From a virus: 20,030 nt of DNA. The notes under the pieces were generated by a model that saw only the letters and a list, made by a program, of their open reading frames with translations, was not told the DNA's origin and ran no database searches. Made by a program: the position numbers and the translations under genes. Below are positions 2,877 to 3,963 of this stretch, piece after piece; positions within the stretch are counted from its first letter, which is position 1, and each line of letters begins with the position of its first letter. The stretch lies in IMG/VR virus record IMGVR_UViG_3300009520_000051; one strand, 5' to 3'.

Positions 2877-3169
2877 CGCTTCGCTCCGTGGGACCCGGCC
2901 GTTAGCGCTGCGCGCTCCAGCGCCCATTTGCCGGCGTGCTTCCCGATGAGCGCGCTCATCACGTCGATGTGCTTGCCTGACATCCCGGCCCCGCGGTTCG
3001 CGATCATTTTTTCCAACTCCGACGCATCCGGATGGGCCGCGATCAATTCCTCGACTTGCTTCACAGCGTCCCACGCCGCGATGGCCTGGTACGTGACCTC
3101 CTCGGCGGCCATGATCGCCGTCGTCACCTTCGCGTTCAATTCACTCAATACATCGCGCGAAGAGATCAT
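2873..3169 (-). CDS. Hypothetical small protein, 98 aa; paralog A
   Basis: ATG at 3169 overlaps the PRTase stop (ATGA). Motifs AIAAWDAV / AAHPDAS / IANRGAGMSGKHIDVMSALIGK are shared with 2065..2301. Confidence 0.55.
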   Translation of the reverse strand: MISSRDVLSELNAKVTTAIMAAEEVTYQAIAAWDAVKQVEELIAAHPDASELEKMIANRGAGMSGKHIDVMSALIGKHAGKWALERAALTAGSHGAKR

Positions 3170-3963
3170 CGGAGTGGCTCTCCAGTCTTCATGTCGATCC
3201 CCTCGTAGAGCAACTCGTCGATCGTGAAGAGCGCGCGAAGAGGCGTCCCATCTGAAAGCGTCTCGGGCCGCTCGCGGCGCTTGTCGATCACGGTGATGAT
3301 CCCTCGCACGTCGAGGCCCGCGCCGCGAAGGTGCCCGGCAGCGGCCGTAGCGGATTTGCCCGCCGACACGATGTCGTCGAGGAGCACGACCCTCGCGCCC
3401 TTCGAGATACAGCCCTCGATAAACCCCGGCGTGCGGCCGTGATCCTTCGAAGCTTTCCGTACGTAAAGGATGTCGAGCTTACGGCCGTTCTGATCCGCGT
3501 CCTCGACCACGCTCTCGCGCGCGGTGTAGAAAGCGAGGACGCTCGCCAAATGACAACCGCCGAGCACGATCCCGGCGACGGCGTCCACGGGCGCGAACGC
3601 GAGAAGCTCTTGGTAGAGTCGCGGCGCGAGGAGTTCGTGCAGGTGTCCGCTCATGCAGGCGCGCTTGATGTTGAAGTACTCCGTGGTCCGGCCGCCGCCG
3701 GGCGCCTCGAAGTACGTGCCGGGAGCCGAGACTTCCAGGCTGTGGAGCCGGATGAGCCCGAGAAGCTTCGTGCGATCGAGGATGGGTTCGGGCAGGATGA
3801 ACGTCGCGAGATCTTCGTCCTTGAAGGCTCCCACTTGCCACGTGTCGCTCCACGACGCTGGCTTGGCGAGACGCTCGTCGTGCGTGTGCGGGTAGTCTTT
3901 CGCGACTGCCCGACACTGCGACGGCAGCAGCGGGCAAACGAATGGACGCTTCTTCGTCACCAC
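3166..3963 (-). CDS. Type I phosphoribosyltransferase, orotate-PRTase (PyrE)-like, with ~50-aa N-terminal extension; GTG start
   Basis: YVRKASKDHGRTPGFIEGCISKGARVVLLDDIVSAGKS matches the OPRT core (RKEAKDHG...IEG...VLxVDDVxTTG PRPP-binding loop). Confidence 0.75.
   Translation of the reverse strand: MVTKKRPFVCPLLPSQCRAVAKDYPHTHDERLAKPASWSDTWQVGAFKDEDLATFILPEPILDRTKLLGLIRLHSLEVSAPGTYFEAPGGGRTTEYFNIKRACMSGHLHELLAPRLYQELLAFAPVDAVAGIVLGGCHLASVLAFYTARESVVEDADQNGRKLDILYVRKASKDHGRTPGFIEGCISKGARVVLLDDIVSAGKSATAAAGHLRGAGLDVRGIITVIDKRRERPETLSDGTPLRALFTIDELLYEGIDMKTGEPLR

Follow-up and report, generated by a model that had tools for sequence, protein, structure and literature searches.

The open reading frame (ORF) at positions 3166-3963 on the minus strand of a 20,030-nucleotide (nt) stretch of viral DNA (IMG/VR record IMGVR_UViG_3300009520_000051; the whole stretch is called the window below) was analysed together with its neighbourhood. 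Its translation is open over 265 codons, and the gene is genuine: it codes for a type I phosphoribosyltransferase (PRTase) of the orotate phosphoribosyltransferase (OPRT; PyrE) clade. The mechanical ORF begins with GTG at 3963. The start was placed one codon further on, at GTG 3960, on the basis of a GTGA overlap with an upstream ORF for a helix-turn-helix (HTH) protein and of homology to the corresponding junction in the related locus L029. GC content at the three codon positions of the gene (0.67/0.46/0.81) is typical of genes in the window, which has a GC content of 61-65% and carries almost all of its genes on the minus strand. Gene calls gave exactly the same protein on 14 metagenomic contigs, of which L001 (23 kb) is the longest. 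Six of the contigs were compared for variation and found to be identical in DNA, so that they are uninformative on selection acting on the N-terminal insertion described below. The gene has the following features:

3166-3960, minus strand: PRTase gene, 264 amino acids (aa) from GTG 3960
3778-3951, minus strand: in-frame N-terminal insertion, about residues 5-62, specific to the phage of the window, with C10, C17, H26 and H28
3166-3777, minus strand: OPRT-fold catalytic core, residues 63-265, with AlphaFold (AF2) confidence (pLDDT) mostly 85-97
3436-3459, minus strand: OPRT-type flexible catalytic loop RKASKDHG, residues 169-176, from alignments
3352-3390, minus strand: phosphoribosyl pyrophosphate (PRPP)-binding loop VVLLDDIVSAGKS, residues 192-204, with D196 and D197; S200 corresponds to T128 of Escherichia coli PyrE

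A model that had seen only the letters and translations of the window (the sequence-only reading) had pointed to a PRPP-binding loop and a KDHG motif of the OPRT type. Both are present as it described, and its view of the gene as an OPRT-like PRTase is borne out by the open frame, the coding-like GC content, the two loops and fold matches to OPRTs only. In the flexible loop, R169, K170, K173, H175 and G176 correspond to E. coli R99, K100, K103, H105 and G106. The protein matches Pfam PF00156 with 27.4 bits (cut-off 26.3) and thus belongs to the type I PRTase superfamily. Its best NCBIfam match by far is TIGR00336 (pyrE) with 74.2 bits, which is below the curated equivalog cut-off of 106.8. Matches to PurR are weak (TIGR01743, 17 bits, E 0.002; PDB 1p4a, E 0.17). 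When sequences in PDB were searched, OPRTs alone stood at the top, the best being Mycobacterium tuberculosis 5HKF (E 4.6e-10), and a family profile matched 2P1Z and 5HKF with E 1e-33. The AF2 model, made from 18 homologues, is confident over residues 59-265. In a Foldseek search of PDB with this model the 50 best matches were all OPRTs, and the best viral structure matches in BFVD were phage PyrE and giant-virus UMP synthases.

The position of the protein within the family was determined from an alignment of 213 sequences and a neighbour-joining tree. E. coli PyrE was used for numbering only, and the numbering reproduces the literature positions K26, K73, R99, K100, K103, H105, D124, D125, T128 and R156. 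S27, G28, S31, T128 and R156 are residues of the hood and base pocket according to structural work on the Salmonella and E. coli enzymes. The alignment comprises three groups:

Cellular PyrE, mostly from Myxococcota: 83 sequences; mostly GGCP in the pyrophosphate (PPi) loop; 130-142 bits against TIGR00336 (three tested); catalytic positions essentially invariant
Group B, metagenomic and largely viral: 117 sequences; GGCH; 102-110 bits (four tested); PyrE catalytic positions conserved
Clade A, which contains the window PRTase: 13 sequences; GGCH; 74-80 bits, with P0008 at 106.2 (four tested); catalytic positions relaxed

The neighbour-joining tree recovers clade A as a monophyletic group. It is small: a database of 5.8 billion proteins contains about 14 of its clusters, and one of 1.84 billion has two to three representatives at 50% identity; close relatives of the window PRTase score 78.9-79.6 bits on TIGR00336. 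The closest match in 185,579 species genomes was 41% identical, and top matches came overwhelmingly from Myxococcota. PyrE proteins of this phylum are the nearest cellular relatives, at no more than 41% identity, and they pass the TIGR00336 cut-off with the scores given above. Group B is intermediate in that it straddles this cut-off and keeps all PyrE catalytic positions; one of its viral members has a dihydroorotate dehydrogenase in its neighbourhood. The comparisons place the window PRTase as a descendant of PyrE.

The window protein retains R99, K100, K103, H105, D124 and D125. In the S27, G28, S31, T128 and R156 columns it has G89, G90, T93, S200 and K228, which amounts to the changes S27G, S31T, T128S and R156K in a pocket that is conserved in PyrE. 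These columns are 96-100% conserved among the cellular sequences (S27, 82/83; G28, 82/83; S31, 80/83; T128, 83/83; R156, 83/83). Conservation is also high among the other viral homologues, with serine in the S27 column in 111 and arginine in the R156 column in 116 of 117. On account of the four changes the protein is not a standard PyrE. The sequence-only reading had doubted that the gene is a canonical pyrE, a doubt that both the changes and the TIGR00336 score uphold, and had named full conservation of the orotate-specific residues as the finding that would speak against it; in the alignment to PyrE they are not all conserved. To judge from its residues, the protein looks like an active PRTase with a shifted base pocket. 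As a side observation, the PPi-loop motif (window residues 135-138) separates the groups, being GGCH in 113 of 117 metagenomic sequences and in all 13 of clade A; the 83 cellular PyrE sequences mostly have GGCP, 77 of them with proline at the last position. The cysteine in this loop is unusual among OPRTs; E. coli PyrE has KGIP there.

Homologues are all 185-212 aa long and start at a position equivalent to residue 62-64 of the window protein. At the DNA level, homology to loci L007, L027 and L029 sets in again near residue 63. At the start position of the homologues the window gene has no ATG, GTG or TTG, and the nearest in-frame start is a GTG at residue 44. GTG 3960 overlaps the TGA of the HTH ORF (GTGA), a junction also found in the relative L029, and the first residues, VTKK, match VT...KKK of L029; the insertion of about 59 codons comes right after them. 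It follows from the junction and the match that the ancestral start of the PRTase gene is conserved. Codon-position GC in the extension (0.65/0.45/0.79) equals that of the gene body. An artefact of ORF calling was therefore rejected as an explanation, given the missing internal ancestral start, the coding-like GC content and the GTGA coupling as in L029. Thus the N-terminal extension proposed in the sequence-only reading is real, as its GC content and the conserved start junction indicate, and only its length has to be corrected from about 50 to about 59 aa. No homologue of the insertion was found in Pfam, in any fetched locus (tblastn) or in the database of 5.8 billion proteins, and residues 1-58 have pLDDT values below 50 in the AF2 model. 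That its two cysteines and two histidines bind a metal is pure speculation.

The PRTase gene lies in a chain of genes in the order p143, p76, RtcB, p160, HTH, PRTase, p98, p192, p78, p67 and major vault protein (MVP), as derived from the gene calls on L001 plus the HTH ORF and a 76-aa ORF, both verified by homology. The neighbours are:

6008-6238, minus strand: 76-aa protein that fills a 253-nt gap upstream of RtcB and is 73% identical to the product of a gene in L009
4566-5990, minus strand: RtcB RNA ligase, 474 aa (Pfam PF01139, 286 bits; phrog_1075)
4084-4566, minus strand: p160, a gene call with a CxC...CxH (SWIM-like) motif recognised by eye and no Pfam match; protein of a variable slot
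3957-4091, minus strand: HTH_38-like ORF, 44 aa, MRRRVTDEERALMRELRAEGNIAHVTGRSESVVHRAVRGYRGRW, unannotated (Pfam HTH_38, 16.9 bits, E 0.005)
2873-3169, minus strand: p98, a paralogue of p78; 4-nt overlap with the PRTase stop
2298-2876, minus strand: p192, Cys/His-rich, kept beside the PRTase gene in L007, L029 and L116
2065-2301, minus strand: p78, paralogue of p98
1860-2063, minus strand: p67, a gene call for a small Cys-rich protein
1-1821, minus strand: MVP homologue, of which the N-terminal 607 of 870 aa lie in the window (MVP_shoulder, 57 bits; Vault_3)

The complete MVP gene (870 aa) is present on L001 at 12143-14755. From RtcB to p78 starts and stops overlap, and the gaps before MVP are 38 nt at most, which leaves no room for internal promoters in the RtcB-to-MVP chain. 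Very likely, the chain including the PRTase gene is co-transcribed and translationally coupled. When positions 1500-7200 were scanned for sigma-70 promoters and terminators, sites were no more frequent than expected by chance. The sequence-only reading had described the gene as embedded in an RtcB/MVP operon without other pyr genes, and as a description this is right, given the overlapping chain. At its ATG the HTH_38-like ORF shares 8 nt with the end of p160, and at its TGA it shares 4 nt with the start of the PRTase gene. Homologous HTH_38 proteins of 50 aa are encoded ahead of the PRTase in L009 and L029 (25.2 bits for the L029 copy); the ORF itself was missed by metagenome gene callers on L001-L006. 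Two gaps in the annotation had been candidates for other elements. The 120-nt gap upstream of the PRTase gene was rejected as a promoter or non-coding RNA (ncRNA), as its RNA fold z-score is -0.02 and it encodes the 44-aa HTH protein; the 253-nt gap upstream of RtcB was rejected as an ncRNA, as it encodes the 76-aa protein conserved in L009. No tRNA-like or vault/Y-like RNAs were found in the window or related loci with ARAGORN and Rfam. The proteins p98, p78 and p192 had no match in Pfam, PHROG, NCBIfam or PADLOC. Both p98 and p78, with p192 lying between them, match a single gene of L007 (2007-2252).

The association of the PRTase gene with RtcB and MVP was followed in related loci. L007 has the order RtcB, an extra PF09414 RNA ligase, p109, PRTase, homologues of p98, p192 and p67, and then MVP. 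In L029 the order is RtcB, HTH, PRTase, p95, p167, p103 and MVP, and L009 ends after the PRTase gene. As the phages of L007, L029 and the window are syntenic overall, the shared gene order is weak evidence of a functional link. In L027, RtcB and PRTase are parted by a different gene set and MVP is missing. L116 (1-2600) is a deletion variant in which p143 is followed by intact genes for PRTase and a p192 homologue, RtcB is missing and MVP is reduced to a remnant of 137 aa; the deletion is a natural one in the same region of the phage and brings the N-terminus of p76 up against the PRTase. On the 66-kb contig L008 and on L117 the PRTase gene occurs with neither RtcB nor MVP. Conversely, a screen of 87 other MVP-bearing viral or metagenomic loci (1.13 Mb) with a PRTase hidden Markov model (HMM) and RtcB queries detected PRTase or RtcB in none of them, and the positive controls worked. 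RtcB and MVP were not found either around 11 distant viral homologues (tblastn and Pfam tally of fetched flanks). Neighbours of these homologues have mixed nucleotide, NAD and RNA-end functions (dihydroorotate dehydrogenase, NT5C, NAPRTase, PNKP-type phosphatase, RNA ligase, ADP-ribosylglycohydrolase), and one of them, L016, adjoins a PF09414 RNA ligase. No constant partner of the PRTase emerged across the clade from a p192-family HMM and all-against-all BLAST. Hence the gene shares the tight, co-directional packing of the RtcB-MVP module and does not recur with RtcB or MVP in independent lineages. Its tie to them is confined to one narrow phage lineage, is breakable within that lineage and is not obligate. 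The slot between RtcB and PRTase (3963-4566 in the window) is a hot spot of gene exchange and is occupied by p160 and HTH in the window, a PF09414 RNA ligase and p109 in L007 (351-1426), and an RLIG1-like ligase plus three other genes in L027 (1472-4187). The HTH gene is not found beside the PRTase gene in L007, L027 or L116.

Substitution rates were estimated by NG86, leaving out the L001/L007 pair of RtcB. Between L001 and L029 the synonymous rate (dS) was about 0.9-1.0 for PRTase, p98 and p192 and about 0.48 for RtcB and MVP. It follows that the PRTase gene is part of a cassette that has diverged more than the two conserved genes on either side of it and probably recombines. The ratio of nonsynonymous (dN) to synonymous rate of the PRTase gene was 0.45 for this pair and 0.15 against the closer L007, values that point to purifying, if looser, selection. 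The gene is intact and retained in every variant of the region.

Several observations bear on the nature of the source element. Relatives of the PRTase with 31-43% identity are located on 11 IMG/VR contigs of 43-407 kb, and relatives of the MVP with 40-44% identity on IMG/VR contigs and in the huge-phage genomes LR756500 (462 kb) and LR756501 (735 kb); phage MVPs have been reported before (bioRxiv 10.1101/2023.11.10.566534). One of few links of the contig to cultured phages is an AAA+ protein encoded in the window:

13183-15027, minus strand: AAA+ protein, 614 aa; matches phrog_29662 ('ATP-dependent protease') with 302 bits and has 36% identity to a jumbo-phage protein (PBS1/AR9)

Genes in the window are dense, co-directional and mostly ORFans, and the contig has no plasmid matches. 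There is no structural hallmark gene inside the window, so that the assignment to a large phage is one that we infer; nevertheless, the element is almost certainly of this kind and not a cellular defence island. The phage probably infects Myxococcota. MVP relatives at 40-89% identity proved common, with at least 542 metagenomic stretches in addition to the IMG/VR contigs and the two huge-phage genomes.

Taken together, we consider the chances about even that the window PRTase is a PyrE-derived auxiliary nucleotide enzyme of a phage, which depends on PRPP and acts on orotate or a near analogue. As a type I PRTase it would join PRPP to orotate or a closely related pyrimidine base to yield a nucleoside 5'-monophosphate and pyrophosphate. 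Like other OPRTs with the RKxxKxHG loop it would act as a dimer, and it would supply nucleotides during phage infection as part of auxiliary nucleotide metabolism. It would be co-transcribed and translationally coupled with RtcB, the small accessory proteins and the MVP homologue owing to its placement in an accessory-gene region of the phage, and would function independently of RtcB and MVP. Accordingly, we read it as a stand-alone accessory function.

Not all data agree with a pyrimidine-supplying enzyme of this type. (i) Within clade A, S27 is replaced by glycine in 10 of 13 sequences; K103 is lost in six, five of which have serine instead and a lysine or arginine one position earlier; H105 is lost in three; R156 is changed in seven, to lysine in six and to asparagine in one; and T128 is replaced by S, A, G or M. 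Relaxation of such fixed positions is unexpected for an enzyme that runs the standard OPRT reaction. (ii) The subclade of the window scores 74-80 bits on the pyrE model, compared to the cut-off of 106.8. (iii) The dN of the PRTase gene between L001 and L029 is 0.41, which is five to nine times that of RtcB and MVP. (iv) Neither the window nor its 23-kb parent contig showed any recognisable pyr gene besides the PRTase gene. (v) The insertion of about 59 aa is left unexplained.

As the main rival reading, the PRTase might be neofunctionalised, with a changed base (another, damaged or toxic one) or a changed acceptor of the ribosyl phosphate, and either help the phage to counter defence or act alongside its RNA-repair genes, its ligases and possibly p98/p192. 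We regard this as possible but doubtful. It would fit with the restriction of changed base-pocket and loop positions to clade A, with the divergent PRTase/p98/p192 cassette (dS about 0.9-1.0) between RtcB and MVP (about 0.48), and with the overlapping, translationally coupled chain and the retention of the gene in all variants of the region. RNA ligases, moreover, are gained repeatedly in the slot between RtcB and PRTase (PF09414 in L007, RLIG1-like in L027), and the distant homologue L016 also lies beside a PF09414 ligase. However, no partner is constant across the clade, the PRTase gene also occurs where RtcB or MVP is missing, conserved gene order in closely related phages is weak evidence of a functional link, and the OPRT catalytic set is complete in the window protein. 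We know of no chemistry that connects a type I PRTase with RNA repair.

A broader variant, which we consider unlikely, holds that clade A as a whole is no longer PyrE and has been repurposed: as a PRPP-dependent transferase or sensor it would cooperate with the RNA-ligase and vault genes of the phage. Its target might, for instance, be an unusual base or a ribosyl-phosphate acceptor that arises during RNA-targeting defence of the host, or it might signal the state of PRPP or nucleotides to the coupled mini-HTH regulator. The Cys/His-bearing N-terminal insertion would then be a lineage-specific interaction surface.

That the PRTase is a mere ligand sensor, binding PRPP or a nucleotide and forming a split, PurR-like operon regulator with the 44-aa HTH protein, appears quite improbable. 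This idea draws on the HTH_38 mini-gene directly upstream, which overlaps the PRTase start in the window, L009 and L029, on the weak PurR matches given above, and on the absence of K103 or H105 from some clade members, which a sensor could tolerate. Matches to OPRTs, however, are stronger by many orders of magnitude (pyrE 74 vs. PurR 17 bits), the catalytic residues are all present in the window protein, and L007, L027 and L116 lack an HTH gene beside the PRTase gene. In addition, the HTH is encoded by a separate gene and not fused to the PRTase, which does not have the make-up of a PurR/PyrR-type protein.

It is very unlikely that the gene is a functionless relic drifting to loss. Relaxed conserved positions and a dN that is high relative to the neighbours might be taken this way, but the ORF is intact in every variant, dN/dS (0.15-0.45) is below 1, and the gene was kept where its neighbours were deleted. 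Furthermore, the PRPP loop, R99, K100, D125 and G106 are invariant within clade A.

PRTase domains do occur in defence systems. A host anti-phage effector that depletes or modifies nucleotides in the manner of retron- or Shos-type PRTases, as the sequence-only reading had suggested, is nonetheless hardly credible here, because the element is phage-like and the gene thus on the phage side of the conflict, the neighbour-joining tree nests it inside PyrE, no close copy exists in 185,579 genomes, and the one match of this kind (ShosT in PADLOC, 15.9 bits, E 0.002) is weak and limited to the PRPP-loop region (residues 186-233). Defence partners such as a DprA-like ShosA, a reverse transcriptase with msr/msd or another ncRNA were not detected near the gene, and no neighbour matched PADLOC, nor was there any match in Rfam.

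Comparison with known systems is in line with a PyrE-derived auxiliary enzyme that has departed from the standard. Short OPRTs of the actinobacterial type (M. tuberculosis PyrE, 5HKF/5HKI; Corynebacterium diphtheriae, 2P1Z) have the same fold, length class, PRPP loop and RKxxKxHG loop and are the best matches in sequence and structure (Foldseek TM 0.81-0.85 on the target). Identity to them is 23-26%, however, and the window PRTase differs by GGCH, S27G, T128S, R156K and the 59-aa insertion. Myxococcota PyrE proteins (Polyangiaceae, Myxococcales), which pass the pyrE equivalog and stand in a housekeeping context, have the unusual GGC motif in common with the window protein. They differ in being at most 41% identical and chromosomally encoded, with GGCP and invariant catalytic positions. 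Phage-borne pyrE auxiliary metabolic genes, as in cyanophages P-SSM2 and P-SSM7 and in jumbo or huge phages, resemble the window gene as virus-borne OPRT-like genes with a presumed boost of pyrimidine supply; indirect but consistent evidence indicates that the window gene, too, is encoded by a virus. At 28-43% identity these genes keep the full PyrE residue set, in contrast to clade A, and neither RtcB nor MVP is adjacent to them within the fetched flanks (tblastn and Pfam tally). Defence-associated PRTases (ShosT, retron-linked) have nothing but the generic PRPP-binding loop in common with the window PRTase; none of their models matches it significantly, defence partners are absent and the window gene is a phage-side gene. 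Bacterial RNA-repair operons with RtcB and MVP, credited to Burroughs and Aravind 2016 in PMC13404743, have RtcB and an MVP homologue in one co-directional chain as in the window. The window chain differs in residing on a phage, and no tRNA-like or Rfam RNA was found with it.

Virus-borne pyrE genes are known from cyanophages (PMC9983427), and purine and pyrimidine genes from huge phages (PMC7162821). As PyrE-like genes of viruses are already known as auxiliary metabolic genes, the basic object is an ordinary one. Distinctive are the tiny clade with its loosened orotate- and PRPP-handling residues, the orphan insertion in the window PRTase, and the location in a phage chain with RtcB, extra RNA ligases and an MVP homologue. 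If the substrate has changed, the enzyme could reveal a new nucleotide-level move in the conflict between phage and host. If it is simply PyrE, it widens the repertoire of large phages, probably with Myxococcota as hosts, by pyrimidine supply. With respect to what vault proteins do, the phage RtcB-MVP cluster is probably of more interest than the PRTase itself.

Outside the chain, few genes were recognisable:

6688-7011, minus strand: PadR
7766-8053, minus strand: weak NikA-like match
11252-11572, minus strand: DUF3846

A SET-domain protein is encoded outside the window, on L001 at 20067-20498, and the remaining genes of the contig are ORFans. Also outside the window, downstream of MVP (15397-15972 on L001), a gene was found for a 191-aa protein that contains KFDG, which resembles ligase motif I, and matches RLIG1 faintly. 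The product of the RLIG1-like gene of L027 is 75% identical to this protein, and in L119 a homologue directly follows MVP. The protein is a further RNA ligase of the region.

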